DNA of 51,733 nucleotides from a virus, in UHGV virus genome UHGV-0405561. One strand, written 5' to 3'. Each line of letters opens with the position of its first letter. Position 1 is the first letter of the stretch. Below are positions 1-51,733 of this stretch, one piece after another. Both the position numbers and the translations under genes were made by a program. The notes below the pieces were generated by a model. That model worked only from the letters and a program-made list of their open reading frames with translations. It was not told the DNA's origin and ran no database searches.

Positions 1-2
1 GG

Positions 3-209
3 TTGACGGTGGAAATCGAGAAGGTCCGCGGAGAAACGGAAAAGGTCCGTGCCGAGACGGAAAAGGTTCGTGGCGAGGTAAAGGAAACCGAGGCTCGCTT
101 ACGGACTGAGATCGAAAAGGTCAAATACGATCTGCTCAAATGGCAGTTCGCCATTGCCTTTGCCCTCGCCGCGATCATGGCCAAGGGCTTCGGCTGGATT
201 GGCTTTTAG
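3..209 (+). CDS. DUF1640-like coiled-coil membrane protein, 5'-truncated at the window edge
   Basis: EKVRGETEKVRAETEKVRGE heptad-like repeats followed by a C-terminal hydrophobic segment (FAIAFALAAIMAKGFGWIGF). Paralogous (~91% nt identity) to the ORF at 51505-51733. A Rho-independent terminator follows. Confidence 0.55.
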   Translation: MTVEIEKVRGETEKVRAETEKVRGEVKETEARLRTEIEKVKYDLLKWQFAIAFALAAIMAKGFGWIGF

Positions 210-921: not shown

Positions 922-1290
922 ATGGCGCATAGCACACGCACGTTGCTCCTTGATGGCGATTGGGACATCACGCTGACGAAGGCCGGAAATTTGGCTCTTG
1001 CCGAGGGCGACTATGCGACGGCGCAGAACGTCGCCAACGAATGCCGCCTGTTCACGCAGGACGCCTTTTTCGCACAAGATGACGGCATTCCGTGGTACGT
1101 CGCCCAGCTTGGCAAGCCGCTGGCCCGTTCCGTGGCCTCGTCGCGTATGCGCCAAGCGGCTTCCGATGTTTCCGGCGTCGTTTCCGTAGAGTCCGTGACG
1201 GTCGAAGACATTGACCCCGTAACCCGGATCATGGACGGAACCATCAGGCTGACCACGACGGAGGGAACCAGTGTCGCAGTTGACCTTTGA
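922..1290 (+). CDS. baseplate assembly protein (gpW/gp25-like or DUF2634-like)
   Basis: 122 aa, immediately upstream of and overlapping a baseplate J-family gene. Position and size fit the small wedge protein that precedes gpJ in P2/Mu-type baseplate modules. Confidence 0.55.
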   Translation: MAHSTRTLLLDGDWDITLTKAGNLALAEGDYATAQNVANECRLFTQDAFFAQDDGIPWYVAQLGKPLARSVASSRMRQAASDVSGVVSVESVTVEDIDPVTRIMDGTIRLTTTEGTSVAVDL

Positions 1291-2503
1291 TCCCAAACTT
1301 GGGCTGGTGGCCCCTGAAACCGAGTCCATACGCGAGGCCGTACAGTCGGACTGGCAGGGCGCGTTCCGGGACGTGGACGTTGAGCTGAACGTCGAGCCCT
1401 CCACCCCCGCGGGGCAGCTTGTGGATGCGGAAACGGCGGAAATCGAGGCGAAGAACGCCGAGTTGCTGTTTCTCTCCAACATGTTCAATCCGAAAGTGTC
1501 CGAGGGGCGGTGGCAGGACGCGCTGGGCTACATCTATTTTCTCACCCGTAAGATCGCGCAGCCCACGGTGGTGGAATGCTCCGTGACCGGGCTTATGGGC
1601 ACGACCATCCCCTACGGGGCGATGGCTCAGAGCACGGACGGCTATTACCTGCTCAATACCGGGGCCTTCACCATTCCCGAATCCGGCACGGCGACGGGCT
1701 ATTTCCGGCTTGCCGAGCCTGGGCCCATCCCCATTGCGGCGGGCAGCGTCACGAAAATCGTCACGCTCATCCCCGGATGGTCCTCCATCGTCAACAAATC
1801 CGCAGGGGTCGTCGGACGCGACATGGAGACGCGGGCCGAGTTCGAGTCTCGGCGTTACGCTTCTGTCGCCAAGAACGCCCACGGGACCGCTCCGTCGCTT
1901 TACGGTGCTCTTGCGGATATCGACGGCGTCATCGACTGCCGGGTGCTCGAAAACATCACCAATGTGGAAGTGGTCAAATACGGCGTTACGCTGGAGGGCC
2001 ATTCCGTCGCCGCGTGCGTCTACGGCGGGGACGACACCGCCATTGCGGAAGTCCTTTTTCGGAAGAAGGATGCAGGCTGCGGGACGAGCGGAAACACTGA
2101 GGTTACCTACGAGGATACGGAGCGTTCCAACGCCTACGGCGGGCCGCTCTATCACTACAAAATCGTACGCCCGTCCGTCGAAACGTTCTGGATACAGGTT
2201 AATCTCGTCAGCAAGTCACTCATGGCGGAGACGACGCTTGAGGCCGTCAGGCAGGCGGTCATGGACGATTTCCTCGGCAAGTCCGAAGCATCGGGAAACG
2301 CCCGCGTGGGGCTGGCGCAGACCGTGTATGCCAGCCGGTTCTATACGTCGGTCATGGCGGTGGAAGGCATCACCTACCTGAAGAATGTCAAAATCCGGCT
2401 CGGCGGGTCCCCTGAGACATGGTTGGACGTGGTGGACATCGACGCCGATGTGGAACCCACGCTGACGCTCGACAACATCCTCGTCAATGTGACGGAAAGC
2501 TGA
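1271..2503 (+). CDS. baseplate J-family protein (P2 gpJ / Mu gp47-like)
   Basis: 410 aa. Recognised from the overall Baseplate_J pattern and its position between W-like and I-like genes. Confidence 0.8.
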   Translation: MSQLTFDPKLGLVAPETESIREAVQSDWQGAFRDVDVELNVEPSTPAGQLVDAETAEIEAKNAELLFLSNMFNPKVSEGRWQDALGYIYFLTRKIAQPTVVECSVTGLMGTTIPYGAMAQSTDGYYLLNTGAFTIPESGTATGYFRLAEPGPIPIAAGSVTKIVTLIPGWSSIVNKSAGVVGRDMETRAEFESRRYASVAKNAHGTAPSLYGALADIDGVIDCRVLENITNVEVVKYGVTLEGHSVAACVYGGDDTAIAEVLFRKKDAGCGTSGNTEVTYEDTERSNAYGGPLYHYKIVRPSVETFWIQVNLVSKSLMAETTLEAVRQAVMDDFLGKSEASGNARVGLAQTVYASRFYTSVMAVEGITYLKNVKIRLGGSPETWLDVVDIDADVEPTLTLDNILVNVTES

Positions 2504-2510
2504 GGTCACT

Positions 2511-3158
2511 ATGGGCGCCCCCACATGGCTCAACATGGATGACGTTCCCGATATGCGGGAGGTGGATAACGTCGATTCGCTGGTACCGGATTCAATCCAG
2601 TCGCAGTATGCGGCGTCCGGGCGCATCGTCGCGCTGGTACGGGGATTCCAGGCCCGGATTGACGCCTCCGCGGACATTGACACCTTTTTTGAGAAGTGGG
2701 TGAACCTGCCCACCTGCGAGGGCTGCGCACTCGACAACTGGGGGCGTATCGTCGCGATCACCCGCGTTTTGCAGGGGCACGAGTCCGTAACTCCGGGATT
2801 CGCCGACCAGATCGTCTGGGACGACGCCTATTTCAAGTTCTTGCTCATGTACAAGGCGATGGCGAACATCACCGCCGCCGACGCCGGGCAGATCAACCGC
2901 ATGATGTCTATGCTGTTTCAGGATGTTACCTACGTCCTCGACATGCAGGACATGACCATCCGCGTCATCTTCGACTACTATCCCACCGACGTGCAGATCA
3001 CCATGTTCCTAGCCTACGGCCTGCTCAACCGGGGTGGGGGCGTCGGCTACAAATGGTATCGCATCAAGACCGATGAGACGTTCGGATTCGACGATCAGGA
3101 ACTGCTCCCGTTCAATCAGGGGATTTTCTCCCCCTACCGCCTGACGGAAGGATTTTAG
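2511..3158 (+). CDS. tail protein I-like (DUF2313 / Mu gp48-like)
   Basis: 215 aa directly after the J-like gene. Composition and order match P2 gpI / YmfQ family. Confidence 0.6.
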   Translation: MGAPTWLNMDDVPDMREVDNVDSLVPDSIQSQYAASGRIVALVRGFQARIDASADIDTFFEKWVNLPTCEGCALDNWGRIVAITRVLQGHESVTPGFADQIVWDDAYFKFLLMYKAMANITAADAGQINRMMSMLFQDVTYVLDMQDMTIRVIFDYYPTDVQITMFLAYGLLNRGGGVGYKWYRIKTDETFGFDDQELLPFNQGIFSPYRLTEGF

Positions 3159-3160
3159 AC

Positions 3161-4072
3161 ATGGCATATCCGCTGCATTTCTTTACCCAGCCGTTTTGTG
3201 ATGCTGGGGACAAAACCATTCCCACGGACGAACAACCCGCCGAAGGCCGCACCAGCCTGCCGCTGGGGTTCCCGCCGGAGACGCAAAAGCCCATCCGCGA
3301 CGGCGGCATCGCACCGGATCGCTGGGACTTCAACGGCATCCTTTACATGCTCTCCGCGCTTGCCTACTGGCAGCAGTCTGGGGGGCAGTGGAAATATAAC
3401 GCGTCATTTCCCTACGCACCGCCGTCGTTCTGCTATTATAATGATCAGCTTTGGTATTGTATCAAAGAGAATGGGCCTAAAACGGCGAATGCCGCTGTGG
3501 TTCCGGGAACAGACACGACGTATTGGGTTGATCTGCTCTGGTTCATTGCCGGAAAGAAATATTGTTCCCGCACGGGAAACACGATCCAGCTTACCGGGCA
3601 GTACGTTACCGGGACCGGAACGATTGACGAAGCCGGAGAATGCAGTTTTTCCCCCGTGGTCCACCAAGCGGACAAGCTCACTACGGCTCGAAACATTTCG
3701 CTCTCCGGCGACGTGTCGGGAACCGTATCTTTCGACGGTTCACGGGGAGTAACGATTTCCACGACAGTGTCCTCCTCCCTCCGCATGGTCCCGGATTGGA
3801 CGCGCATATCTACGTCTATCAATCCCATTGTGCCTGGGAGCTCCTATACCGTGCCGTCGAATGGGTATGTATGGGTATGGGCGGCGACCCGCGGTGTGGA
3901 CGAAATCTGCCAAATCAGCATCGCAGGAACGGTGTTTACCGGATGCTCAGGCGTTAATGATTGGGTTGATACAGCCATTCCCGTAGCCAGCGGTGACATT
4001 ATCCGATTCTCAGGCAACTGGTCGGAATTAACCCCTGGCGATAACCGTATGTTCTTTATCCCCGCGAAATAA
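3161..4072 (+). CDS. tail fibre protein (N-terminal baseplate-attachment type)
   Basis: 303 aa following the I-like gene. Thr/Ser/Gly-rich C-terminal part (TGTGTIDEAG..., SGDVSGTVSFDGSRGVTISTTVSS) typical of fibre shafts. Confidence 0.5.
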   Translation: MAYPLHFFTQPFCDAGDKTIPTDEQPAEGRTSLPLGFPPETQKPIRDGGIAPDRWDFNGILYMLSALAYWQQSGGQWKYNASFPYAPPSFCYYNDQLWYCIKENGPKTANAAVVPGTDTTYWVDLLWFIAGKKYCSRTGNTIQLTGQYVTGTGTIDEAGECSFSPVVHQADKLTTARNISLSGDVSGTVSFDGSRGVTISTTVSSSLRMVPDWTRISTSINPIVPGSSYTVPSNGYVWVWAATRGVDEICQISIAGTVFTGCSGVNDWVDTAIPVASGDIIRFSGNWSELTPGDNRMFFIPAK

Positions 4073-4082
4073 GGTGTTGCAT

Positions 4083-5678
4083 ATGGCGTTTAAATTTATT
4101 CGCACCGGAACCGGCGAGCTATCCGGCCCTTCCATGATTTACCAGATAGAGCAGGGGTTCGACGACACGGCGGCCTCTGCCGAGGAAGCGCGCAAGATGG
4201 CAGCAAATGCCGAAGCCACGGCGAATAAGGCGCTGGAGGAGGCTACCGAAGCAACAGCCGTGGCGGATGTGGCCCTGAAGACGGCTCAGGATGCGCAGGC
4301 AAGCGCAGGCGCGGCGCAAAACCGGGCGGACGAGGCGTGGAGCGCGGCGACCGGCGGGGGCGAATCCGCCGAGGCCGCCATGCAGCGGGCCAATGCCGCA
4401 TACGTGTTGGCGGACACGGCGAACGCCAACGCCCTGAGCGCACAATCCAAAGCTGACGCGGCTACCACAGCGGCGGAAGAAGCCACCACGTCGGCGGATA
4501 CGGCGGCTGCGGCCGCAACGGAAGCCACGGCAACGGCAAACGAAGCCATCTCCAAAGCGGGGACGGCGGAATTTGCGGCTCATCAGGCGTCTTCGGACGT
4601 ACAGGTGCTCAAGTCAATCATTGACGGATTGGAGAGCGCGACAGACGAGTTTGAAGCAGACAGCTATACTACGTCTCTTGATAGCTTTGTAAGCACCCTC
4701 GTAAAAAAATACATTACTGGTACGATTACCTCCGTTCTTCCTGGCGGCGTGTCCGCGCCATTCTGGTTCTACAACTGGTCTACGAATAATCTCACTAAAG
4801 TTTTTCAGTTTATCCAAACGGATACTGGAAAATATGGGCGTATCGGAACTCCATCGGACATTACCATGCGCGATGGAGAAGATACGTTTTACATTCAGTT
4901 CAAAAGTGGGACGTCTACTTCGGCAACGTCCGTAGCCGTTTCTTGCGCCGACAATGCGCTAACCGCTGCGGGCCAACGTGGGTTTACGTGGACAGTGACA
5001 TCCACTCCGGCACGGGGCCTTGTGGGGACGCTGGCGTGGGATGCCACCACACCCGACGGGACGGAAATCATCATTGGCAACCGGGTTGTCGCTACTGTCA
5101 CCGGCGGCAACGTGGTGGTGAGTGACGCTAGCCCTTTCCCCAGCACAAACGCGACTCTCGCACTTATGGCCGGCACGATTGCCGCTTCCTCCACCACACT
5201 CGAAATTTCTTTCGTTTGGACTTCGTTAGACGCTTCCGGGTGCACGTGGGATGTGTGGAATGAAACGGGGGATAAAGAAGGGGTCGTGCGTACGACTGGA
5301 GACCAGTCCATCGCGGGGACAAAGACATTCATTGGTGCGGTTCGGTTAACGGACGTTGCCGAAAAATTCCAAACGGTTTCGAGCGCAACAGGAACTGTTT
5401 CACTTAACCTCTCCGACGGCAACATTTTCTACCTAACTGCAACCGGCAATCTCGCGCTGGAGTTTGTCGGTCTGATTTCGGGTTTCGTCCATTCGGTTTT
5501 CATTCAGCTTACAAACGGCGGGAATTACACCGTTGCGTACCCGGCAAACGTGAGATGGCCCGAAAAGGCCGCCCCCACTTTGACGGAAAACGGGATGGAC
5601 TTGCTCATGTTTATCACTAATGACAACGGTTCTTCATGGGATGCTACCTACTGTCTTGATATTGGGGTTCCGGCATGA
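4083..5678 (+). CDS. tail fibre protein with N-terminal Ala-rich coiled coil
   Basis: ATG at 4083 with SD AAGGTG 6 nt upstream. N-terminal AEATANKALEEATEATAVADVALKTAQDAQASAGAAQNRADEA coiled coil, then a T/S-rich beta-type distal domain. Confidence 0.55.
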   Translation: MAFKFIRTGTGELSGPSMIYQIEQGFDDTAASAEEARKMAANAEATANKALEEATEATAVADVALKTAQDAQASAGAAQNRADEAWSAATGGGESAEAAMQRANAAYVLADTANANALSAQSKADAATTAAEEATTSADTAAAAATEATATANEAISKAGTAEFAAHQASSDVQVLKSIIDGLESATDEFEADSYTTSLDSFVSTLVKKYITGTITSVLPGGVSAPFWFYNWSTNNLTKVFQFIQTDTGKYGRIGTPSDITMRDGEDTFYIQFKSGTSTSATSVAVSCADNALTAAGQRGFTWTVTSTPARGLVGTLAWDATTPDGTEIIIGNRVVATVTGGNVVVSDASPFPSTNATLALMAGTIAASSTTLEISFVWTSLDASGCTWDVWNETGDKEGVVRTTGDQSIAGTKTFIGAVRLTDVAEKFQTVSSATGTVSLNLSDGNIFYLTATGNLALEFVGLISGFVHSVFIQLTNGGNYTVAYPANVRWPEKAAPTLTENGMDLLMFITNDNGSSWDATYCLDIGVPA

Positions 5679-6808
5679 TCCAAAAAATGTTTATGGGTAT
5701 GATGGGCGCATCTGACGTTAATCCATTTTCTCGTGAGCAGCAGTTCATCACCTCTGGAACGTATGAGTTTGTCGTCCCAAAGGGCGTGAAAGGGATTAAA
5801 GCTCTGGTCATCGGGGGGGGCGCGAAGGGAAAGACGAATGGCGTAGCAACCGGAGGGAAGGGTGGCGGTGTCATATCCGGCATCATCAAAGTAAGACCCG
5901 GAGACATCTTGAGTATCGCGGTAGGCGCGGTGTTGGAAAATGTGGGAGGTACGTCTGCGATAACCCGAGCTGGAGACGTGTTGCTGCAAGGCAACGGTGG
6001 AACGAATGCAGCCCGGGGAGGTACTGCGTACGCTGAGCTTGTGACGCTGCTTTCAAACTACAATGCTACGAGCTTGCCCACGGCAGTGTATAAAGGTTGT
6101 AGATCGTTCCTTGAAATGGCCGACGACGCATGGGCGTTTCATCCGGGGTTTTGGGCCGGGGGGAATGGTGGGGGATATAGTTCTGCATACGGTGCAACGA
6201 AAGGTAGTAGCGGAAAGTTGGGTACAGGTGGATACGGGATCGGCGGAACTGGCGGAACTGGGGGACTGAATGACTATGCTAAGACTTACGGTGAAAATGG
6301 CGGCGGAGAATTCGGGGGAGGAGGCGGAAGTCCGACAACCCAAGCTTACCATGCTAATGGTGGAGGTGGTGGCGGTAGCGGAGATGGCTTAGGAGGCAAT
6401 GGGGGTAGAGGTGGAGACACTGCTCTCGGCGGAGGCTTTGGAGGCAACGGGGGAACCGGTTTTGGAGCCGGGGGCGGTGGAGGCGGCGGCGCAAATCTGG
6501 GAGGTACTTCAGGTACGGCTGGGGCGGGAGGAAGAGGCGGTGGACCGAGGGGAGGAGCAGGGGGGAAAGGCAGCATTTATATGCAGGATAATAGCAATAA
6601 AGGAGGTGGAGGAGGCGGGGGAGGTGGAGGAGAATTTGGCGGCTACGGCGGCAACGGCGGCTCAGGCGGCTACAGTGGCCCAGGCGGTTACGGAGGAAAT
6701 GGAGGAAATGGAGGATATGGAGGAGACGGAGGAGACGGAGGTTCTGGAGGAATTAAGGTCGGAAACGGAGGCGCAGGTGGACCCGGAGCGGTCGTAATAT
6801 GGTATTAA
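5675..6808 (+). CDS. glycine-rich fibre-associated protein (Gly_rich PF12810-like)
   Basis: 377 aa. N-terminal globular part (TSGTYEFVVPKGVKGIKALVIGGGAKG), then about 230 aa of GGNGG/GGYGG repeats. Encoded by GGN-repeat low-complexity DNA at 6150-6800. Confidence 0.5.
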   Translation: MIQKMFMGMMGASDVNPFSREQQFITSGTYEFVVPKGVKGIKALVIGGGAKGKTNGVATGGKGGGVISGIIKVRPGDILSIAVGAVLENVGGTSAITRAGDVLLQGNGGTNAARGGTAYAELVTLLSNYNATSLPTAVYKGCRSFLEMADDAWAFHPGFWAGGNGGGYSSAYGATKGSSGKLGTGGYGIGGTGGTGGLNDYAKTYGENGGGEFGGGGGSPTTQAYHANGGGGGGSGDGLGGNGGRGGDTALGGGFGGNGGTGFGAGGGGGGGANLGGTSGTAGAGGRGGGPRGGAGGKGSIYMQDNSNKGGGGGGGGGGEFGGYGGNGGSGGYSGPGGYGGNGGNGGYGGDGGDGGSGGIKVGNGGAGGPGAVVIWY

Positions 6809-6827
6809 TGATATTAAGGAGGTAACT

Positions 6828-7457
6828 ATGCTTATCAATATCAAAACAAAAGAGCTCATCAACGAATCAGCTTTTCGGGGGCTGCACCCATCCATTTCTC
6901 TGCCTGCCCGTCTGACCGATGATGTTTTGGCAGACTATGGACATGCGACATACTCGTACACTGAGCCGCCGGACTACGATTCGGAAACGCAGACTCGCTC
7001 CGAAACCCCTCAGTTTGTCGAGGGTAAATGGCGTCAGGTATGGACTGTCGAAGATATTGAATTTACGTCGGAAGAATTGGCGGAGCGTCTTGTGCAGAAG
7101 AAGGCCGCAAAACTCTCTGAGATCAAGTCGGCTTTTGTATCCGCCGAAGCCGACGGCTACGTCGAGTCGTCGCTTGGCTTCCGGGCCGACGCCACGCGCC
7201 GAAGCATCGAAGACATCGACGGCTTGATCGATCTCGTCTCGTCCGGTGCGCTTCCGGCCCCGGTGACGTTCCGTGATTACGACAACGCCTATCATAGCCT
7301 GACCCTTGACCAACTCAACGTCTTGCGGCTGGAAGCCAAGGGGCGCGGCCCGGTGCTTTATGCCCGGAAATGGGAGCTTGAAGCCGCCGTGGAGGCCGCC
7401 GAAACCGTGGAAGCCGTACAAGCGGTGGATGCGGGGGCAGTCTGGCCCGGAGTCTAA
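6828..7457 (+). CDS. hypothetical tail-fibre-region protein (possible fibre assembly/chaperone)
   Basis: 209 aa, strong SD AAGGAGG. Last gene of the fibre operon before the next motif copy. Confidence 0.35.
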   Translation: MLINIKTKELINESAFRGLHPSISLPARLTDDVLADYGHATYSYTEPPDYDSETQTRSETPQFVEGKWRQVWTVEDIEFTSEELAERLVQKKAAKLSEIKSAFVSAEADGYVESSLGFRADATRRSIEDIDGLIDLVSSGALPAPVTFRDYDNAYHSLTLDQLNVLRLEAKGRGPVLYARKWELEAAVEAAETVEAVQAVDAGAVWPGV

Positions 7458-7504
7458 GCATGACCTATAGAGCTGGTCGCGCAAATTATCAACGTATAGA
7501 ATGC

Positions 7505-7521
7505 GAATTTTGTTCACGGTG
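7505..7521 (+). promoter_or_regulatory. late-operon motif, copy 3 (variant GAATTTTGTTCACGGTG)
   Basis: 55 nt upstream of the ATG at 7577. Half-site degenerate (GAAT) but TTGTTCACGGTG conserved. Confidence 0.5.
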
Positions 7522-7576
7522 GGTGACGCATGAGGTCACCCCTTCTATCCGCCGGGCGGCGTAGGCCGGGGGAGAT

Positions 7577-8443
7577 ATGGCACAGAGTTTCACGAAAAAG
7601 ACTATCGCCATCACCATCACCGTTTCTGGGGTGCAAAAACGCATCGAGGGGCTTGCCTGCAAATGCAGGGTGTCCAAACTCGGACTTCCTGACAAGAACA
7701 AGGCGTCCGTCTCTATCTGGGGGCTGTCGCTCGACGACATGACGGCGATGACTACGCTCTCTTACGGCCCGCTGAGGTATGCCTCGCGCAATCACATGAT
7801 CATCGAAGCCGGAGAGCAGGGTGGTGCGCTGTCACGGGTCTTTTCCGGAAACATCATGTCAGCTTGGGCGGACTTCAACAGCGCGCCGGACGTCGAAATG
7901 AAGTTTGAGGCTATGACGGGCGGATATGCCGCGCTGATCGCCCAGAGCCCGGTTGCGTCCTCCGGCACCGCGAAAGCGGCAGAGCTGTGTGGGCAGTTCG
8001 CCAAGGAGTGCGGGCTTTCGTTCGTCAACCAAGGCATCAATATATCGGTGGACAACTCCGTCTATTCCGGATCACCGCTCGAAAAGGCGCAGGCGGTCGC
8101 AAAGCAGGTAGGTGCCGATCTCATCATCGACGACGACAAGATGACGCTTCTTCCACGCGGTGAGACGCTGAAAGGCGGGAGCGTGGTGGTGCTCTCCCCC
8201 GAAACGGGAATGATCGGCTATCCCACCTTCACAAACAACGGCATCGCCGTAAAGTGTTTCTTCAACCCGTCAGCGCAGCGCGGGGGACAGGTGAAAATCT
8301 CTAGTATCGTGCCCAAATCCAGCGGAACTTGGCGCATCACCAAGGTCGATCACGATCTTTCGGCCTACGACCCCAAGGGTGGCCCTTGGGAAACCACGAT
8401 AGAGGCAACGCATGGCGCAGGATTCCTCGCGGGAAGTTTATAG
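7577..8443 (+). CDS. tail protein D-like (P2 gpD / Mu gpP family, baseplate hub)
   Basis: C-terminal TWRITKVDHDLSAYDPKGGPWETTIEA resembles the conserved W-ITRVEH-L...G-T motif at the end of P2 gpD. 288 aa. Confidence 0.55.
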   Translation: MAQSFTKKTIAITITVSGVQKRIEGLACKCRVSKLGLPDKNKASVSIWGLSLDDMTAMTTLSYGPLRYASRNHMIIEAGEQGGALSRVFSGNIMSAWADFNSAPDVEMKFEAMTGGYAALIAQSPVASSGTAKAAELCGQFAKECGLSFVNQGINISVDNSVYSGSPLEKAQAVAKQVGADLIIDDDKMTLLPRGETLKGGSVVVLSPETGMIGYPTFTNNGIAVKCFFNPSAQRGGQVKISSIVPKSSGTWRITKVDHDLSAYDPKGGPWETTIEATHGAGFLAGSL

Positions 8444-9143
8444 CGACGCAACGCTTGATACGCCTTCCTCTCCGTTCAACGTTCTGTCATTCTTGATGGA
8501 GAGTGTTCTCAATCAGCAGTTGAACACGGCCCTCCCCGTACGTGTGGACTCCTGCACGAAACCGGGGACGGGCGACGCAGCGGGGTATGTCTCAGCCACG
8601 CCGCTGATTTGCCAGCGCGGAGCCGACGGCAGGGCCCTCACCCCTGTGAGCATTCCGAAACTGCCGTTTTTCCGGCTCCAGTGTGGAAAGGCGGCGGTTG
8701 TCATCGACCCCCAACCGGGCGATGTGGGGCTTGCCGTATTCGCGCAGAAAGACTGTTCGACGTTGCAAGCCGGAAAGACGGAGCCCGAAGTTGCCGGGAG
8801 TTTCCGCCGCTTTGACATGAGTGACGGCTTTTATATCGGCGGCTTCCTCGGCGTGCCCCCGGAAACGTTTGTCCACCTCGACCCTGAGGAACAAACCGTC
8901 ACCGTGACCGGCCCCCAAACGGTGACGCTCAACGCCGACAAAAAAATCACGCTCAACGCCCCGCTGGTCGAAGTCACCGGGCGCATCGTCCAGACCGGCG
9001 AACGCGCGGAAGACGGCGGATCGTCCTTCACCGGCGGCTTTACGAATACCGGAGGCCGCATCACGTCCAACGGCATCGTCCTTGAAGAACATACGCACAC
9101 TGGCGTGGAGGCGGGGGACGACAGTACGGGAGAGCCCCAGTAA
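8412..9143 (+). CDS. baseplate spike protein (gpV / Mu gp45-like)
   Basis: N-terminal OB-like region (PVRVDSCTKPG...), beta-helical repeats (TVTVTGPQTVTLNADKKITLNAPLVEVTG) and a C-terminal EEHTHTGVE His-rich apex motif typical of gpV-type spikes. An alternative start at Met 8496 is possible. Confidence 0.6.
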   Translation: MAQDSSREVYSDATLDTPSSPFNVLSFLMESVLNQQLNTALPVRVDSCTKPGTGDAAGYVSATPLICQRGADGRALTPVSIPKLPFFRLQCGKAAVVIDPQPGDVGLAVFAQKDCSTLQAGKTEPEVAGSFRRFDMSDGFYIGGFLGVPPETFVHLDPEEQTVTVTGPQTVTLNADKKITLNAPLVEVTGRIVQTGERAEDGGSSFTGGFTNTGGRITSNGIVLEEHTHTGVEAGDDSTGEPQ

Positions 9144-9153
9144 GGGCACAAAG

Positions 9154-9189
9154 AATCCCCTCCCGGCGCAAACCGAGAGGGGGATTTTT
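9154..9189 (+). terminator. Rho-independent terminator after the spike gene
   Basis: aatcccctcccggcgcaaaccgagagggggattttt. Confidence 0.7.
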
Positions 9190-9191
9190 CT

Positions 9192-9212
9192 ATGCGTGAT
9201 TCTATGCGTGAT
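9192..9212. repeat. tandem ATGCGTGAT arm-type repeat (left of att core)
   Basis: ATGCGTGATTCTATGCGTGAT. The same dimeric repeat recurs at 9422-9442 on the other side of the tRNA fragment. Confidence 0.5.
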
Positions 9213-9321
9213 TTACTTTGTGTATAGGTGTAGTATATACCAGTCTGTACCATAAAAATGAGTTTTTTTAGCTGAATACGGGTATACGCTTAACCATGCA
9301 CAAGATTGGAAATCGTGTGTA

Positions 9322-9362
9322 CTCAAAAGGTACCGGGAGTTCGAATCTCCCCCTCTCCGCCA
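9322..9362 (+). other. att core: 3' fragment of a tRNA gene (T-arm, acceptor 3' strand and CCA; Ser-like acceptor)
   Basis: ccgGGAGTTCGAATCTCCCcctctccgCCA. No matching 5' acceptor strand is found upstream, so this is only the duplicated 3' end. Integrase lies immediately adjacent. Confidence 0.6.
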
Positions 9363-9370
9363 TAAATTTC

Positions 9371-9403
9371 AAGGGCTTGTTGAAATCCAACAAGCCCTTT
9401 TTT
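9371..9403. terminator. bidirectional terminator hairpin
   Basis: aagggcttgttgaaatccaacaagccctttttt, between the tRNA fragment and the integrase stop. Confidence 0.6.
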
Positions 9404-9409
9404 CGTATC

Positions 9410-10438
9410 TCAATCGCCTTCATGCGTGATTCCATGCGTGATGTCCTCAAAAATTCCCGCAGTTTCCCTGTCGACACCGAGGTCATGCAGATAGATTTCT
9501 GTGGTGCGAATGTTCATGTGTCCAAGCACCTTTTGCGCCCGGCGCGGGTCTTTGAGATGGGTAGCCATAAAGTGGCGCAGGCTGTGGGCCGTAAAGAACG
9601 GTATGCCCGCCTTCTCGCAAAGGCGCTTCATAAGATACTTGATGCGCGGCGTAGTGCGTGGGTAGGGGAGTCCCGTTCCGGGGGCTTCAAAAACAAACCG
9701 CTCATTTTCGCGTAAGGCATAGAGACGGAACAACACCCCGTACAGAGTTGGGCTCATGGCAATCGTGCGTGATTCTCGGTTTCCGCCCCGGCGTTTGCTT
9801 GTCCACAGCCGGACGGTCCTGTTTTCCAGATCAACATCTTCCCACGCCATTTCTCGGATTTCAGAGATGCGCCCCGCCGTGTGAAGAAGGCAGAACAGGA
9901 AATCCCGCTCGAACCCGGTAGCGCAGGACATGAGCTTTGCGACGTCATTTTTAGGCGGGATGTACTTTACTGTCTGTACAGTGGAGAAGGGCTCAGTCTG
10001 GCGCGCGATATTGACCGAAACGTATCCCTCTCGTGTAGCCCATGAGTAAAGCGCGGACAACTCAATGCGATATTTGTTCGCGGACTTCCCGCTCACGGCT
10101 TCCTTGGCTGTTTCGAGAAAGCCTTCCAGATCGTTTTTGGTGATGGTGGAGAATTCGGTTTTAGGGCCGATGAATCTGTTCAGCTTCCGGAGTACGCTTT
10201 TCTTATAGATAAGGGTGTTCTTCTTGCATCGTCCTTCGCGTTTTTGCAGATAAAGCGCCGTGACCTCATACAAGGCCAAGCGTCTGGGCATAGTCACGGA
10301 GTCCTTGGCGGTCGATTCCCATTTGAGCGCCTCCAGCTTTGTCAAGAATCCGCCCCGGTACGCGATTCTTTGCCCTCCCTCGAACACTTCCGCCGCGTAT
10401 CGCATACCATTCTTCGTCTTGTATTTCCTGATTGACAT
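9410..10438 (-). CDS. int: tyrosine recombinase / phage integrase
   Basis: C-terminal catalytic motifs AHSLRHFMATHL and HMNIRTTEIYLH (R-H-R-Y family). N-terminal arm-binding-like RKYKTKNGMRYAAEVFEGGQRIAYRGGFLTKLEA. Start chosen at MSIRKYK. Confidence 0.85.
   Translation of the reverse strand: MSIRKYKTKNGMRYAAEVFEGGQRIAYRGGFLTKLEALKWESTAKDSVTMPRRLALYEVTALYLQKREGRCKKNTLIYKKSVLRKLNRFIGPKTEFSTITKNDLEGFLETAKEAVSGKSANKYRIELSALYSWATREGYVSVNIARQTEPFSTVQTVKYIPPKNDVAKLMSCATGFERDFLFCLLHTAGRISEIREMAWEDVDLENRTVRLWTSKRRGGNRESRTIAMSPTLYGVLFRLYALRENERFVFEAPGTGLPYPRTTPRIKYLMKRLCEKAGIPFFTAHSLRHFMATHLKDPRRAQKVLGHMNIRTTEIYLHDLGVDRETAGIFEDITHGITHEGD
9422..9442. repeat. tandem ATGCGTGAT arm-type repeat (right copy, inside the integrase 3' end)
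   Basis: ATGCGTGATTCCATGCGTGAT. Confidence 0.5.
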
Positions 10439-10601
10439 GAGAAACCTCTTTGAGAGTATCACTATCCCAAAGGAAGCGGACGGAGCGTAGCGTTTTCCCG
10501 CGGCCTACAGGGATATGAGGATATATTTTCCAAATTCTACGGAACGTTTCCCGGCTGATGCCGAGCCGCTCGCTCATCTCGTCGGCGGTGAGTGTTTCCA
10601 T
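10266..10601 (-). CDS. AlpA/Xis-like helix-turn-helix (HTH) protein (excisionase candidate); 3' part overlaps the integrase start in another frame
   Basis: N-terminal MSERLGISRETFRRIWKIYPHIPVGRGK resembles AlpA-family excisionase HTH. The ORF runs about 170 nt into the integrase N-terminus, so the true end is uncertain. Confidence 0.4.
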   Translation of the reverse strand: METLTADEMSERLGISRETFRRIWKIYPHIPVGRGKTLRSVRFLWDSDTLKEVSHVNQEIQDEEWYAIRGGSVRGRAKNRVPGRILDKAGGAQMGIDRQGLRDYAQTLGLV

Positions 10602-21429: not shown

Positions 21430-21864
21430 TCATTTGCTACATGAGGCCGCACACATCATCAGCAAAAGCCCGTCAACATCTGCGGCAAGACCGTATAGGC
21501 AACCCTCGATCATGCTGTTCATGTGATTAAACGGCGTATCCCCGCCTCGTCGGAAGTCGGTGCGGATACCAAAGATAGGAAGACCTTTGGCGTAGGCGTA
21601 CCCGATTTCCCAAGCCGTGCCGTCATCAACCTGAGTGCCGTCAAGCAAGGCGACAACGCAGGTACTGTGGTCAATGGCGTTTCGGCACATATCAAAGATA
21701 AGGGAGATCGCCCCGGGGCCAGCGGCTTTGATTTGGTCTGAGGTGAGCAAGTCTCCCGGCCAGACCACGGAGTGCCCTGCTGCGCGCAGGCGTTCGGAAA
21801 GATTACCATGCCACGCTCGTTCGGCGTCTGAGAAAAGGGGGCCAGCCTGATAGATTTTATACAT
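21430..21864 (-). CDS. nucleoside 2-deoxyribosyltransferase (NDT)-like protein (NDT/Rcl fold)
   Basis: MYKIYQAGPLF...GTAWEIGYAYAKGLPIFG matches the NDT-family N-terminal and catalytic-region signatures. Starts 15 nt after the repressor stop, so it is in the same operon. Confidence 0.6.
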   Translation of the reverse strand: MYKIYQAGPLFSDAERAWHGNLSERLRAAGHSVVWPGDLLTSDQIKAAGPGAISLIFDMCRNAIDHSTCVVALLDGTQVDDGTAWEIGYAYAKGLPIFGIRTDFRRGGDTPFNHMNSMIEGCLYGLAADVDGLLLMMCAASCSK

Positions 21865-21878
21865 GCGGCACTCCACGG

Positions 21879-22610
21879 TTATTTGCAGCTCACATCACTC
21901 CATGCCCACAAAACGCGCCCGACGACACACTTGCTCCAGTCGCCCTCGAAGTCTTCCATGAGGCTATAGACCTCCGGGGGATTTTCGGCGGCGTTGTCCG
22001 AATAGTAGGTGATACGGTAATCGCGTTTTTTCGGCTGGTGTTCGACGGCGACGCGTTTGATTTTCCCGCACCCGTCCGTATCCATCACCAGCATGATGCG
22101 CCCGGTGAAGTTGAGGACGTCCTTGTCCTGCCGGTCTACGAGTACGATGTCCTGCGGTTTGAGGGTCGGGAGCATAGATGTGGAGTGCTTGCCGATCATA
22201 ACCGCAATGAGGTCGCGTTTGTGCTGGATGCAGCGTTGATGCCGCCAGACGAGGAACCACGAGATGAGCTGCCCCTGAGGAATGATGCCGGGCCCCGCTC
22301 CGACCTCTTCGACCAGGGGCACGGCAAGGTAATCTTCATCCGGCGGGGGAGCGAGGTCTTCGCCTGCGGGGACGATTCGGGCATCAACGAAGCAAACATC
22401 CTTACTTTGGCTAGATGTGGGATTAGAAAAACTGACTCCCAGAAAGTCTAAAAGCGGCTGTATTGACGTAATTGTAGGAACTCGTTCGCCTTTTTTCCAG
22501 CGAGTGATGAGGTTGGGGTGAACATCAAGGGCCTCGGCTAGCTTCTTGGCGTTTCCACATTTTTCGATGGCTTTATCGAGCAGAGCCAAAAATTCAGCAT
22601 AAATATCCAT
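21879..22610 (-). CDS. cI: CI-like repressor (HTH plus S24 LexA-like peptidase)
   Basis: N-terminal HTH (KKLAEALDVHPNLITRWKKGERVP). C-terminal S24 domain with Ser...Lys dyad context (GKHSTSMLPTLKPQDIVLVDRQ). Confidence 0.8.
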   Translation of the reverse strand: MDIYAEFLALLDKAIEKCGNAKKLAEALDVHPNLITRWKKGERVPTITSIQPLLDFLGVSFSNPTSSQSKDVCFVDARIVPAGEDLAPPPDEDYLAVPLVEEVGAGPGIIPQGQLISWFLVWRHQRCIQHKRDLIAVMIGKHSTSMLPTLKPQDIVLVDRQDKDVLNFTGRIMLVMDTDGCGKIKRVAVEHQPKKRDYRITYYSDNAAENPPEVYSLMEDFEGDWSKCVVGRVLWAWSDVSCK

Positions 22611-31634: not shown

Positions 31635-33896
31635 ATGAGCAAGAAGCGCACTTATCGACATGCCACCTCCATACCTCCGCAAGCGCAGCCGTCGCGCCGT
31701 CTGAATCTCTCCCCGGACGTGCGCGGCGGCCTTGCTCAGCCTTTGCCGCCTACGCCCGACGACATCAGCAGGCTGTACGGTCCGGCGAAGACGCTCGGCG
31801 CGCCCGAAGAGGTGCAGCTTGCGATGGACGCACGGCTTGCGGACTCCGGCGTCTATTCCCTGCTCCAGCATTCCCTTGAGCTCGGAGTCGGGATTGCCCC
31901 TCAGTTCATGGGATACGGCGTCCTCCAGAATCTTGCCCAGAACGGATTGATCCGTGCCTGCGTCGAGACGGTATCCGACGACATGACCCGCGAGTGGATT
32001 GAGTTCAAGCGCGAAGGGGAGGGCGATGATGACGCCCTGCTTACCGACCTCGCACAGGCTTGCAAGAGATTGGGGCTCCAGCGTCTTTTCCACGAAGCGA
32101 CGGAGCTTGTGGGGTACGAGGGCGGGGCCCTCCTCTTCATCGACACCGGGGCCATCGGGCAAGAGCTGGAGCGCCCGCTGAACATCAGCCCGTACTCGGC
32201 GGAACTGAAACCCGGCGGACTCCTGCGCTTCGTCGTCATCGACCCGGTGAACGTTTTCCCCGGCGACTACAACAGTCTTTCGCCGCTTGAGCCGGACTAC
32301 TTCCGTCCGCGCTGGTGGTGGGTGCTTGGGCAGCGTGTGCACGCCTCGCGCCTCATCCGATTGGTTGCGAACGAATGCCCGGTGCTGCTGCGGCCCGCCT
32401 ACAATTTTTTGGGCATCCCGCAGGCGCAGATACTCTGGGACTATGTGCTGCACTTTCAGGAGTGCCGCGCCGCAGAAGCCCGGTTGTTGACGAAGTTTTC
32501 GTTAACCGTCTTCAAGACGAAGATGGACGACATTCTTTTCGCCTCAGGCGGTACGGCCCATCTCGATACCCGCATCCGGTACATGATCCAGTCCATGACG
32601 AACGACGGCGTGCTTGCCGTGGACAAAGAGGCGGAAGAGGTGGTGAAGCTGGAAACGCCGCTTTCCGGCGTAACCGACATCGTGCGCCAGTCCCTCGAAA
32701 TCCTCGCCGCCCTGAACCGCACCCCGGCGGTCAAACTGCTCGGCATCAGCCCGTCCGGGTTCAATGCCACGGGCGAATCGGACATCCGCAACTATTACGA
32801 CCATATCACGAGCCAGCAGGAGAAAGTCCTGCGCGACGGCATCAAGAAGGCGCTCGACTGTATCCAGCTCCACCTGCGCGGAACCATCGACCCGTCCGTG
32901 ACGTTCGACTTCGCGCCCCTCGGCGGGGAGGACAGGGCGGCCCTTGCGACGCTCCAGAAGACCAAGGCCGACACCATCGCCGTCTACATGGATCGGGACA
33001 TCATCTCTCAGGAAGAAGCCCGGCAGTCCCTTGCCAGTGACCCGGACAGCGGTTTCTCCAACATAGACCCGGAGGAAGTGCCGCAGGGCAACGGAATGCC
33101 CGACGCTCTGCCGGAAGCCGGGGAAGGAGGCTTGATGCCCGACATCGACGACGTGGACAAGGCCGGGGCCGTCTACGACGCCGCGTGGGACGAGGATGTC
33201 TGGCGTACCGCCGAGAACGGGAAACGGTATCAGATCGACACTGAAACCGGCGAGATCAAGAAAGGGAATGTGGGGCAGCCCGTCGTCAACCGGGAGTCAC
33301 GTCCCGTGGAGTCCTCCAAGCCGGACACGGCCCGTTATGAGGCATTGGTGCGGGAACACGGCGGTGACCACAAGAAGGCTGCGCATGCTTATTTCCGCGA
33401 GAAATTGCAGGGGCGGCATGTCACCGCGCAGACGGATAATGGGCCGATAGAGGCGTGTTTTACCGGCGGCGGATGGGGTGAGCTGAAGAAGGGGATGAGG
33501 GATGATCCACTTAAGGCTGCATTGGTTCCGCATTTGCCGGATATCGTCGCCCATGGAACGTACAGCGTAGACACTCCGGCGCATAATCATCCAGACGTAA
33601 GAAAGTTCCACTCATACGCCAAGTCCATCCACACGGAGCAAGGGGATTTTGAGGCGATAGTCGATGTAGCGGAACGTCCGGAAAAGCAGCCGCAGCATCA
33701 GGTTTACAGCCTGACGCGAGAAGGAACGCGGGAGTACGAATACCGTAGACAAAAAGAGTCGGCGTTTTCCCCCGCGGCCCCCGGGCAAAACCGGGGCGCT
33801 AGAAAAACGCCGACTCATGGCAGCGATGCTGCTCTTGAGAAAAATATAGCTCCTTTCTTCGAGGTTGTAAATATTCGTTTCGCTAATGAGGAGTAG
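31635..33896 (+). CDS. portal protein with an approximately 270-aa C-terminal extension of unknown function
   Basis: The first 480 aa or so are portal-like. An acidic linker (PDIDDVDKAG) is followed by a distinct globular C-terminal region (HLPDIVAHGTYSVDTPAHNHPDVRKFHSYAKSIHTEQGDFEAIVDV). Confidence 0.75.
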   Translation: MSKKRTYRHATSIPPQAQPSRRLNLSPDVRGGLAQPLPPTPDDISRLYGPAKTLGAPEEVQLAMDARLADSGVYSLLQHSLELGVGIAPQFMGYGVLQNLAQNGLIRACVETVSDDMTREWIEFKREGEGDDDALLTDLAQACKRLGLQRLFHEATELVGYEGGALLFIDTGAIGQELERPLNISPYSAELKPGGLLRFVVIDPVNVFPGDYNSLSPLEPDYFRPRWWWVLGQRVHASRLIRLVANECPVLLRPAYNFLGIPQAQILWDYVLHFQECRAAEARLLTKFSLTVFKTKMDDILFASGGTAHLDTRIRYMIQSMTNDGVLAVDKEAEEVVKLETPLSGVTDIVRQSLEILAALNRTPAVKLLGISPSGFNATGESDIRNYYDHITSQQEKVLRDGIKKALDCIQLHLRGTIDPSVTFDFAPLGGEDRAALATLQKTKADTIAVYMDRDIISQEEARQSLASDPDSGFSNIDPEEVPQGNGMPDALPEAGEGGLMPDIDDVDKAGAVYDAAWDEDVWRTAENGKRYQIDTETGEIKKGNVGQPVVNRESRPVESSKPDTARYEALVREHGGDHKKAAHAYFREKLQGRHVTAQTDNGPIEACFTGGGWGELKKGMRDDPLKAALVPHLPDIVAHGTYSVDTPAHNHPDVRKFHSYAKSIHTEQGDFEAIVDVAERPEKQPQHQVYSLTREGTREYEYRRQKESAFSPAAPGQNRGARKTPTHGSDAALEKNIAPFFEVVNIRFANEE

Positions 33897-49041: not shown

Positions 49042-49044
49042 CCG

Positions 49045-51449: not shown

Positions 51450-51504
51450 TCCTTGGCAAGCCTACATGAATCATATAAGATTTTACCAACGGAGGGATTC
51501 CCCC

Positions 51505-51733
51505 ATGTTGTTGTTCGATACCGGAAAAAAGCTGGAAAAAGCGTTTACCGCCGAGCAGTTCGACGCCCTTGTCGAGGTGCTCGAAAAGCGTGAGGATAAG
51601 GCCGCGACCAAGGAAGACCTGCGCGAAACCGAGTTGCGGTTGCAGGTTGAACTGGAGAAGGTCCGCGGAGAAACGGAAAAGGTTCGTTCCGAGACGGAAA
51701 AGGTTCGTTCCGAAATGAAGGAAACCGAAGCTC
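51505..51733 (+). CDS. DUF1640-like coiled-coil protein, 3'-truncated at the window edge
   Basis: MLLFDTGKKLEKAFTAEQFDALVEVLEKRED...EKVRGETEKVRSETEKVR. Paralogue of the ORF at 3-209. Confidence 0.55.
   Translation, partial: MLLFDTGKKLEKAFTAEQFDALVEVLEKREDKAATKEDLRETELRLQVELEKVRGETEKVRSETEKVRSEMKETEA

Follow-up and report, generated by a model that had tools for sequence, protein, structure and literature searches.

The viral DNA examined here (UHGV virus genome UHGV-0405561, 51,733 nucleotides, hereafter the window) carries in its interior the 3' part of a tRNA gene, with short repeats on either side and an integrase gene next to it. Such a locus could be the internal P-O-P' junction of two related prophages inserted at one tRNA gene, with the left 9 kb as the end of the first prophage and the remainder as the second, which was the reading favored in a preliminary description; or it could be the attachment site of one phage that has int in the middle of its map, which that description gave as the alternative. 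A tandem junction would look identical to attP, and since it too is a P-O-P' arrangement, the site alone cannot separate the two readings; the topology of the assembly and its gene content do, and they decide for a single phage. We concluded that positions 9192 to 9442 are, very probably, the attP of a single complete temperate myovirus of Bilophila wadsworthia whose circular assembly had been cut inside a gene of the tail region. As on lambda's vegetative map, the site is the P-O-P' of a genome that is circularly permuted. The sequence anatomy, circular closure, single gene set and motif co-variation described below were observed directly; the features are located in Table 1.

Table 1. Features of the attachment region and of the point of closure in the window
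Feature	Positions	Strand	Basis or remark
Coiled-coil membrane protein gene, 5' part	51476..51733	+	Start taken from the called gene in L001
Same coiled-coil gene, 3' part; marks the arbitrary linearization point	1..209	+	Frame continuous over the closure
Tail spike gene (gpV-like), final late gene before attP	8412..9143	+	Pfam Phage_spike, Apex
Hairpin 3' of the tail spike gene	9157-9182		Terminator scan
P-arm candidate arm-type integrase sites, two direct copies of ATGCGTGAT	9192..9212	+	Exact copies only here and at 9422-9442
tRNA-Ser(GGA) 3' part, core identity with attB	9304..9362	+	59/59 identity
Anticodon loop TTGGAAA, putative 7-bp crossover (overlap) region	9306..9312	+	Inference
Extra TAAATTT common to the window and the commonest host downstream flank (B2)	9363..9369	+	
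Phage-supplied intrinsic terminator, 12-bp stem and T run	9371..9405	+	Terminator scan, inverted repeat I11
Tyrosine integrase gene, 342 aa	9410..10438	-	Pfam PF00589 (2.4e-21), PF02899, PF13102; PHROG 1 integrase
P'-arm candidate arm-type sites, two direct copies of ATGCGTGAT at +116 and +128	9422..9442	+	
Candidate excisionase (recombination directionality factor) gene, HTH ORF	10266..10601	-	

The tRNA-derived core and its flanking repeats

The plus strand of the window from 9304 to 9362 was identical at 59 of 59 nucleotides to positions 32 to 90 of a 90-nt tRNA-Ser(GGA) gene from human-gut metagenome contigs. The tRNA-derived segment spans 2 bp of the 5' anticodon stem, the anticodon loop, variable arm, T arm, acceptor strand and CCA. 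ARAGORN found no complete tRNA gene in the whole window, in agreement with the earlier view that only a 3' part is present, and called the full 90-nt gene tRNA-Ser(gga) at three loci in other contigs (L170, L128, and L142). The fragment had been described as 40 nt long, from 9322 to 9362; its T arm, 3' acceptor strand and CCA do end at 9362, but its length is 59 nt and its start is at 9304. When the TAAATTT that follows is included, the block of identity with the host extends to 66 bp (9304 to 9369). The terminator beyond this block also stands just past the int stop codon on the opposite strand, and in attL loci it comes immediately 3' of the tRNA.

The anticodon loop is bordered by an imperfect inverted repeat, CAAGA and TCGTG (the anticodon stem), whose halves are candidate core-type sites, and across three element families that are unrelated, the match to the tRNA starts 2 to 6 bp ahead of this loop. 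From the sequence, crossover probably takes place at the anticodon loop, 9306 to 9312; attP and attB do not differ anywhere in the 59-66 nt block, so the attL and attR junctions cannot map the cut.

The repeats read ATGCGTGATTCTATGCGTGAT at 9192-9212 and ATGCGTGATTCCATGCGTGAT at 9422-9442. In the P arm the two ATGCGTGAT copies are spaced by 12 nt (start to start) and lie at -114 and -102, counting from the first base of the anticodon loop. The exact 9-mer occurred four times in the 51.7 kb, always on the plus strand and always inside the two dimers, where shuffling predicted 0.43 copies and none of 100 shuffles reached four; the 21-mer occurred twice against 0.00 expected with three mismatches allowed. 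With one mismatch the 9-mer was not above chance (12 against 10.5 expected), and the significance lies in the exact copies and the dimers only. The left dimer lies outside coding sequence. The right-hand dimer is within the final codons of int (I333 to H339, in the terminal residues ITHGITHEGD), and not in an intergenic stretch.

The positions of the repeats were unchanged in relatives. Family 2, whose integrase is 53% identical to that of the window, has ATTGGTGA at -194, -182, and -170 and at +116 and +128, with ATTGGTGAT in its P' arm at the same +116 and +128 as the P' repeats of the window. A third element (integrase 31% identical) has TGTACGA at -139 and -126 and at +126 and +139. When the arm motifs of the three families were compared crosswise, none was present in the arms of another family. 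This co-variation, in which each family carries its own motif on both arms, supports reading the repeats as arm sites, and we regard the ATGCGTGAT dimers as putative arm sites bound by Int. The original suggestion that arm-type repeats flank the fragment on both sides thus gains from the confinement of exact copies to the arms and from the co-variation of the motifs.

An Rfam scan of 9100-9500 at a permissive E-value gave no tRNA match; the best match was RF04351, an antisense plastid 3'UTR family, which scored below gathering and aligned to the complement of the tRNA-Ser-like 3' end in the window, a hint that the similarity to tRNA reaches the variable arm. The lack of an Rfam tRNA match for the fragment, together with the location of the right-hand dimer in an ORF, would suit a phage cargo tRNA that has decayed, or a resemblance by chance, with repeats that have no integration role and represent a coding repeat of int (ITHGITH) and a coincidental copy. 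We consider this exceedingly unlikely: all 59 nucleotides of the fragment match a real host tRNA and end exactly at CCA, the attL, attR and attB junctions break precisely at the core block, the left dimer does not code for protein, and the motifs of both arms change together across three element families. The 59-nt identity and the breaks at the block uphold the description of an att site made up of a tRNA 3' fragment, repeats and int.

Closure of the assembly and gene content

The window corresponds to contig NODE_8_length_51764 of ENA assembly ERZ807510 minus its last 31 nt, and those final 31 nt of the 51,764-bp contig are the same as window positions 1-31. This terminal overlap means that the assembly closes on itself. 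The tail operon continues over the arbitrary cut point, and the gene order across the join is that of a normal tail operon with a moron island; the coiled-coil gene lies between Bro-N (50520) and the sheath-initiator gene (922). The coiled-coil gene at the join has within it a tandem duplication of 96 nt (51638-51733 and 1-96, 86% identical), and the point of closure coincides with this duplication and its exact repeats of 29-31 nt; the copy number of the 96-nt unit is uncertain because the 31-nt overlap sits at the duplication boundary. A cycle in a de Bruijn graph, taken alone, is compatible with a free circle, a concatemer or tandem identical prophages.

The break at exactly this duplication, and the unusual length of the overlap (31 nt is not known to be a default SPAdes k), could be accounted for by a false circle, in which the repetitive coiled-coil gene links sequence from two related phage strains into a chimera. 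Against such an artefact, the 31-mer at the join differs from the matching stretch of the other repeat copy, the operon over the join is the normal one, and independent contigs of 46-51.5 kb from other samples have the same P1-core-P1' order. We therefore judge a chimera highly unlikely, and even if true it would leave the nature of the att site unchanged.

The gene content also pointed to a single phage. The window has one set of int, ERF/SSB, CI-like repressor, lysozyme, TerL, portal, capsid, sheath, and tube genes, and its tape measure, baseplate, fibre and spike genes are likewise single-copy. For the nine proteins of the baseplate, fibre, hub and spike encoded at 922-9143, a search to the right of the att site found no paralogue. 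The region right of int had been taken for a full phage genome; it is incomplete, as the baseplate, fibre and spike genes are absent there and present at the left of the window. We also observed a type I-F-like CRISPR mini-array in this phage; exact scans of IMG/VR with two of its spacers gave no match.

Two prophages in tandem are hard to reconcile with these observations. The contig closes into a circle, and one gene keeps its frame over the join; the window holds neither an intact tRNA nor a host flank and has one fragment only, there is one integrase and one copy per module, and the left-hand proteins lack counterparts on the right. The total of 51.7 kb is close to the distance from int to attR, some 50 kb, in a provirus of an isolate genome. 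In addition, abundant reads from host junctions would be expected to branch the assembly graph at a 59-66 nt core that is longer than the overlap, and this apparently did not happen. The claim of two related prophages in tandem was thus not sustained, and the alternative of one phage with int in mid-map was favored by the circular closure and the single copy of each module.

Attachment forms and tandem arrays in other contigs

We surveyed human-gut metagenome and IMG/VR contigs for att sites; the counts given here are of loci, not all of them independent. The attL form was found at 13 loci, as a full tRNA (complete by ARAGORN in L142) followed by P' and then by a convergent int at +108 to +1133. 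At the eight attR loci the tail spike gene precedes the P arm, and the core fragment is followed by host flank B1 or B2. The attP form was found at eight loci. Empty sites with the intact tRNA (attB) were also present, and a full tRNA followed by B1 or B2 was found at 39 sites. In integrated forms one end has the intact tDNA, and the opposite end has the displaced fragment, oriented the same way. All four att forms, therefore, exist in nature.

Members of the integrase 90% cluster and of the capsid cluster were annotated as Bilophila wadsworthia or uncultured Bilophila, and one member of the integrase cluster (P0048) is on a 3.4 Mb contig. When a genome collection was searched with a 26-nt pattern from the T arm and acceptor, the matches listed were tRNA-Ser genes of many phyla, with L015, L057, L065, and L104 as related Desulfovibrionaceae; the exact host was not among the matches listed. 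Host flanks compared by blastn with these genome loci gave no match, and neither did the DNA of the att region when searched against deposited phages.

Two other elements use the same tRNA-Ser(GGA), and tandem arrays at this Bilophila tRNA are real, with hybrid junctions that join arms of different families: P2-core-P1' in L152 and L169, P1-core-P2' in L226 and L243, and P2-core-element 3 in L140 and L217. Two long contigs show the tRNA, a family-2 prophage of ~57-59 kb, the fragment and then the next element (L201/L140 and L219/L217), and on a 123-kb contig (L180) P1-core-P1' stands beside a truncated int. These arrays speak for a tandem origin of the window junction too, which the closure and the single gene set of the window nevertheless make very unlikely.

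Integrase, proposed mechanism and significance

A tyrosine integrase gene does lie beside the att site, as first described. Its product has an N-terminal arm-binding-like domain, a SAM-like core-binding domain and a catalytic domain, and the catalytic hexad R190, K215, H285, R288, H307, and Y316 was invariant in 37 homologues. The AlphaFold2 model had a mean pLDDT of 86, with an N-domain of three strands (3-8, 11-20, and 23-31) and a helix (34-47) at pLDDT 78-91, and the best Foldseek match of the model in PDB was full-length lambda Int (1z1b_A, E 2.6e-13, 348 aligned columns). The integrase is thus predicted to be a three-domain protein with a lambda-like fold. By sequence its N-terminus matched Arm-DNA-bind_4 (PF14657) at E 0.0017 and 18.3 bits, below the 22.3 cut-off, and a search of PDB sequences with the N-terminus alone gave no match. 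In families 1 and 2, the only pair compared for N-domain divergence, the integrases are 44% identical in the N-domain and 67% in the catalytic domain.

The region to the right had been labeled int-xis, and here the tyrosine int stood, while xis became a candidate: the ORF is conserved and has an HTH, and its family matches fall below threshold (TIGR01764 'excisionase family', E 0.0032; HTH_28, E 0.0038). The ribosome-binding site of this ORF is a perfect AGGAGG, and 173 nt of the ORF overlap the start of int in a different frame; a counterpart with 41% identity stands upstream of the family 2 int, and a PHROG search with the ORF gave no match. The protein it encodes may direct excision.

We propose that the phage brings with it the last 59 nt of the host tRNA-Ser(GGA) gene, a 7-nt trailer and its own terminator, and that the adjoining int would encode a lambda-type heterobivalent tyrosine integrase. 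The N-domain of this protein would bind the ATGCGTGAT dimers of the P arm (9192-9212) and the P' arm (9422-9442), while the other two domains, core-binding and catalytic, would work on the core that matches the tRNA, probably in the anticodon loop. Insertion of the phage would then follow from recombination of attP with attB. At attL the 5' part left in the host and the 3' part supplied by the phage would together rebuild the tRNA, with the phage terminator and int after it, and at attR the displaced host 3' fragment would lie behind the tail spike gene and the P arm. Excision may be directed by the small HTH protein encoded upstream of int.

Much of this arrangement resembles lambda: attP is ~250 bp in lambda and 251 bp in the window (9192-9442), both arms carry short repeats distinct from the core, int adjoins attP with a small HTH gene upstream of it, the predicted three-domain integrase has full-length lambda Int as its best fold match, and on the vegetative map attP and int come after the tail genes, in the middle. 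The lambda core is 15 bp long and its site is intergenic, whereas the core in the window is a 59-66 bp block identical to a tRNA. The window also differs in having two sites per arm, all in direct orientation, and P' sites inside the int coding sequence, and its integrase is only ~18% identical in sequence to lambda Int. In attP of the P2/186/HP1 type there are two direct arm repeats on each arm, and HP1 also integrates at a tRNA gene; the window likewise has a dimeric direct repeat per arm and belongs to a temperate phage of the myovirus type, and the catalytic domains of P2 and HP1 integrases are weak fold matches to its integrase (E ~1e-5).

Williams, in 2002, reportedly classified tDNA att sites, including an anticodon-centred class. 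With its putative crossover at the anticodon loop, the core in the window corresponds to the anticodon-centred class tabulated in Islander, which lists 3' fragments in 3760 of 3919 islands, 2083 anticodon-centred sites and 125 tandem arrays (PMC4383910). As in islands and prophages of this kind, attP holds a 3' fragment of the target tDNA beside a tyrosine recombinase gene, identity begins at the anticodon stem-loop, integration restores the tRNA and sends the 3' fragment to the far end, and tandem arrays occur in which each member has its own fragment and integrase. There is no difference in kind between the window attP and anticodon-centred tDNA elements.

The att mechanism is a textbook one, of which the window gives a clean and well-supported example; it is the phage that is new. 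We found no description of this Bilophila phage and its tRNA-Ser(GGA) site, and the deposited phage collection held no terminase more than 50% identical and no integrase more than 27% identical to those of the window. For this uncultured temperate phage of 51.7 kb, the results fix the host as Bilophila wadsworthia, a sulfidogen of the gut associated with bile, the integration target as tRNA-Ser GGA, and also where the genome ends lie; they further identify tRNA-Ser(GGA) as a hotspot common to at least three elements, with real tandem arrays. Around their common core these elements have the arm motifs ATGCGTGAT, ATTGGTGAT and TGTACGA, one per element. If the arm motifs have diversified together with the integrases, the elements may form orthogonal integration and excision modules, and we offer as a tentative possibility that the at least three Bilophila elements constitute a natural orthogonal set of Int and attP pairs. 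For an organism that is difficult to manipulate genetically, the three natural pairs of Int and arm motif are possible tools of orthogonal integration. The P' sites of families 1 and 2 lie within the final codons of the integrase itself, which, if this reading is true, could couple site specificity to the gene or allow Int to regulate itself. Orthogonality, if true, would let elements stack in tandem at one attB without cross-excision.

Core, arm repeats and integrase

The preliminary description had placed the 3' 40 nt of a tRNA at this site and denied the presence of a complete tRNA gene. ARAGORN likewise called no complete tRNA in the window, and the fragment does carry the T arm (GGGAG TTCGAAT CTCCC), the 3' acceptor strand and CCA in a stretch ending at 9362, but it proved to be longer than 40 nt. 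A 45-nt probe from the fragment matched 110 stretches from human-gut metagenomes and 9 stretches from IMG/VR, many of which contained a full 90-nt tRNA-Ser(GGA) as called by ARAGORN; positions 32 to 90 of this tRNA were identical to the tRNA-derived stretch of the window at 59 of 59 nt. The 7 bases past CCA are also common to the most frequent host trailer, giving an identity block of 66 bp.

The dimeric repeats reported on the two sides of this core were found at the same positions, ATGCGTGATTCTATGCGTGAT in the left (P) arm and ATGCGTGATTCCATGCGTGAT in the right (P') arm, with 251 bp between the outer edge of one dimer and that of the other. The 9-mer ATGCGTGAT occurred as four exact copies in 51,733 bases, all of them + strand copies within the dimers; 0.43 copies were expected from shuffled sequences, and four copies were reached in 0 of 100 shuffles. 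The 21-mer dimer occurred twice, relative to an expectation of 0.00. As the 9-mer showed no enrichment in the window when one mismatch was allowed, only exact copies count.

The neighboring gene encodes a tyrosine integrase (Int), as had been noted from the sequence, with a catalytic domain and SAM-like core-binding domains assigned by Pfam. Residues R190, K215, H285, R288, H307, and Y316 were invariant in an alignment of 37 homologues, mostly from Desulfovibrionaceae. By sequence, the arm-binding domain (PF14657) matched below threshold, and the N-terminal consensus was KYxTKxGxRY...GGFxTKxxAxxWE; in the AlphaFold2 model (mean pLDDT 86), residues 3–47 formed three strands and a helix, and the top fold match of the model in the PDB was full-length lambda Int (1z1b_A; E 2.6e-13, 348 aligned columns). 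The ORF overlapping int is, from its sequence, a reasonable candidate for Xis; it matched excisionase family TIGR01764 and HTH_28 below threshold and had no match in PHROGs, and a homologue 41% identical to it lies in the same place in family 2, another element family at the same tRNA.

Features of the window by position
Feature	Position	Strand	Remarks
Motif CGAACCTTGTTCACGGTG	268, 854, 7504, 27516, 31584, 39298	+	18 nt each
Genes beyond the cut	sheath initiator 922; hub 7577; spike 8412–9143		sheath initiator, baseplate J, wedge, fibre, E217_gp41 hub, spike
P-arm dimer	9192–9212	+	
TRTACCA copies	9236–9242, 9246–9252		TATACCA, TGTACCA
tRNA-derived stretch	9304–9362	+	begins 2 bp ahead of anticodon loop; loop, variable arm, T arm, acceptor strand, CCA
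Anticodon loop	9306–9312	+	TTGGAAA; inside tRNA-derived stretch
Terminator	9371–9399	+	12-bp stem, T run next; scan for terminators
int stop codon	9410–9412	−	
Tyrosine integrase	9410–10438	−	Pfam
P'-arm dimer	9422–9442	+	
Candidate xis ORF	10266–10601	−	N-terminal HTH; starts 5 nt past perfect AGGAGG; 173-nt overlap with int
Leftward early operon	after int and xis-like ORF		methyltransferase-like gene, PAPS reductase, DUF1351, SSB, ERF
L226 spacer targets	21823–21854, 31989–32020		
CI-like repressor	21879–22610		
Bro/ANT, VRR-NUC, lysozyme	between CI-like repressor and TerL		
Head genes	TerL 29217; portal 31635; major capsid 37559		TerL, portal, Mu-F, major capsid
YoeB/Phd-YefM pair	38652–39169	−	
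Tail genes	sheath 41833; tape measure 44441–46573		tail terminator, sheath, tube, tape measure, Dit-like, Pam3_gp18
CRISPR mini-array	47893–48160		five 28-nt repeats, exact 60-nt period, four 32-nt spacers
Spacer self-matches	46982; 48226; 50519		Dit-like gene, 3 mismatches; Sie-like gene, 6; start of Bro-N, 5
Small accessory island	48187–50145	−	between Pam3_gp18 and cut point
In-frame tandem duplication	51638–51733, 1–96		96 nt (32 aa), copies 86% identical; inside coiled-coil protein gene, whose product also has a C-terminal hydrophobic segment

Forms of the site in related contigs

Two more element families at the same tRNA provided a natural co-variation test of the arm motifs, whose positions we counted from the first base of the anticodon loop. 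In family 1 (the window, with its integrase as the reference), ATGCGTGAT lies at −114 and −102 in the P arm and at +116 and +128 in the P' arm. Family 2, whose integrase is 53% identical to that of the window, has ATTGGTGA at −194, −182, and −170 and at +116 and +128; element 3, with an integrase 31% identical and int on the opposite side of the core, has TGTACGA at −139 and −126 and at +126 and +139. Each of the three motifs is confined to the arms of its own family, always as direct repeats with a 12- to 13-nt period. Arm-type integrase sites would be expected to show such a pattern. The N-domains of the family 1 and family 2 integrases are 44% identical and their catalytic domains 67%, and the lower N-domain value fits a changed arm specificity. 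The right-hand copies in the window encode ITHGITH at the Int C-terminus, where the family 2 counterpart reads ITNEITN; that they are a mere coding repeat is a reading against which the family-specific motifs on both arms speak.

The stretch from the P-arm sites to the core contains TRTACCA twice in direct orientation, with a 10-nt spacing; the copies are partly kept in relatives, including the diverged locus L164. Speculatively, an accessory protein, for instance Xis, could bind there.

When loci were sorted by the sequence to the left and right of the core, four forms of the site were found, the counts being of loci that are not all independent. The full tRNA ran into host flank B1 or B2, both of which occur downstream of the intact tRNA, at 39 loci; at 13 (attL) it ran into a P' arm of the window type with a convergent int at +108 to +1133. 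A window-type P arm followed by the core and then B1 or B2 was present at 8 loci (attR), and P-core-P' at 8 (attP), several of these on contigs of 46–51.5 kb. These four forms are the products expected if a window-like circle and the tRNA gene recombined within their block of identity. A provirus in an isolate genome (IMG 2561511128) extends ~50 kb from an int remnant to attR, close to the length of the window. Bilophila wadsworthia is the host: when clustered at 90%, the integrase groups with WP_368535672.1 [Bilophila wadsworthia], on a 3.4-Mb contig, and WP_294508375.1 [uncultured Bilophila sp.] has the same sequence as the capsid protein.

Circular closure, tandem arrays and gene content

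By exact matches of the encoded proteins, the window was traced to ENA ERZ807510 contig NODE_8_length_51764_cov_53.96, which, except for its last 31 nt, is the window in the same coordinates. Those 31 nt are identical to window positions 1–31, so the contig is a closed cycle in the assembly graph from which the terminal repeat was trimmed. The cut point lies inside a coiled-coil membrane-protein gene whose frame is continuous over the join (...EARLQVELEKVRGETEKVRSETEKVRSEMKETEARLTVEIEKVRGETEKVRAETEKVRGEVKETEARL...). The 86% identity of the first and last 96 nt is due to the tandem duplication in this gene; as the assembly was cut exactly at a unit boundary, the copy number of the unit is uncertain.

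The gene content of the window is one genome's worth. The preliminary description had proposed two related prophages in tandem at one tRNA, with a full early-to-late genome to the right of int. Right of the att site, however, there were no paralogues of the nine proteins encoded at 922–9143, and apart from the 96-nt duplication the left and right parts showed no notable DNA similarity; the right part is therefore not a full genome, and depends on the left part to complete its tail. Since a tandem array also has a P-O-P' structure at its internal junction, the site alone cannot separate the readings, and tandem arrays at this tRNA are real: we found P2-core-P1' junctions (arms numbered by family) at L152 and L169, P1-core-P2' at L226 and L243, and P2-core-element 3 at L140 and L217, and two long contigs run from the tRNA through a family-2 prophage of ~57–59 kb and a fragment to the next element. 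Tandem identical prophages could also give a graph cycle, the 31-nt overlap falls at the repeat boundary, and 31 is not known to be a default SPAdes k. But host DNA, an intact tRNA, a second integrase and duplicated modules are all absent from the window, whose two ends connect to one another, and we consider it very improbable that the site is an internal junction of tandem prophages.

At least three element families integrate at the Bilophila tRNA-Ser(GGA) gene, a hotspot with tandem arrays or truncated-integrase remnants at L140/L201 (VOFH01003509.1), L217/L219 (ERZ1106949 NODE-17), L152, L169, L226, L243, and L180.

The 18-nt motif CGAACCTTGTTCACGGTG occurred in six copies with up to 2 mismatches (0 expected), all on one strand. 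Most precede the start of a late gene by 45–75 nt (the ORF at 333, sheath initiator, hub, lysozyme, and portal), and the sixth (39298) is downstream of the YoeB/Phd cassette and before the head-completion genes (from ~39.4 kb); the motif is likely a late promoter or regulator site. The cassette, which encodes a YoeB toxin with its Phd-YefM antitoxin, is an insertion that separates the major capsid gene from the head-completion genes. The accessory island, between tail and baseplate genes, encodes a Sie-like/tRNA_anti-like OB-fold protein and an HSDR_N-type endonuclease (PHROG 4225, E 4e-120), lies between the CRISPR mini-array and a Bro-N gene, and is probably a defence or superinfection-exclusion cluster.

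The mini-array repeat, GTTGTCCGCCGTGTAGGCGGTTTAGAAG, looks similar to type I-F repeats; it matched Rfam CRISPR-DR4 over its full length, below gathering, and no cas genes were found in the window. Of the four spacers, three have imperfect matches (3–6 mismatches) in genes of the phage itself and seem directed against variant alleles carried by related phages; an exact scan of IMG/VR with two of the spacers gave no match. Contigs of further Bilophila (pro)phages, belonging to both integrase families (L226, L202, L142, and L249–L252), also have mini-arrays of 2–7 copies of this repeat, with 25 distinct spacers in all. In the L226 array, carried by a family-2 phage with its P' arm and int next to the P1-core-P2' junction, two spacers match the window with 2 mismatches each, one of them in the portal gene with a 5' CC flank, which we take to be a type I-F PAM. 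These matches suggest phage-against-phage targeting.

Relation to known systems and proposed integration

The att region had no DNA match among deposited phages, and the best deposited-phage matches were 50% identical for TerL and 27% for Int. The phage itself is not among deposited phages; its attP/Int mechanism is well known. The system resembles lambda attP/Int in style, and belongs to the anticodon-centred type that targets tDNA. For each of the three element families, tRNA identity starts 2–6 bp ahead of the anticodon loop. A crossover at this loop would correspond to the anticodon-centred class of Islander, which holds 2083 of 3919 islands (PMC4383910).

We propose that Int would bridge the arm dimers and the core and synapse attP with the tRNA-Ser(GGA) gene, with strand exchange within the identity block; the 7-nt anticodon loop, lying between the halves of the inverted repeat formed by the anticodon stem, is the probable place of crossover. 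In the integrated state the tRNA would be rebuilt, its 3' part and terminator being phage-derived.
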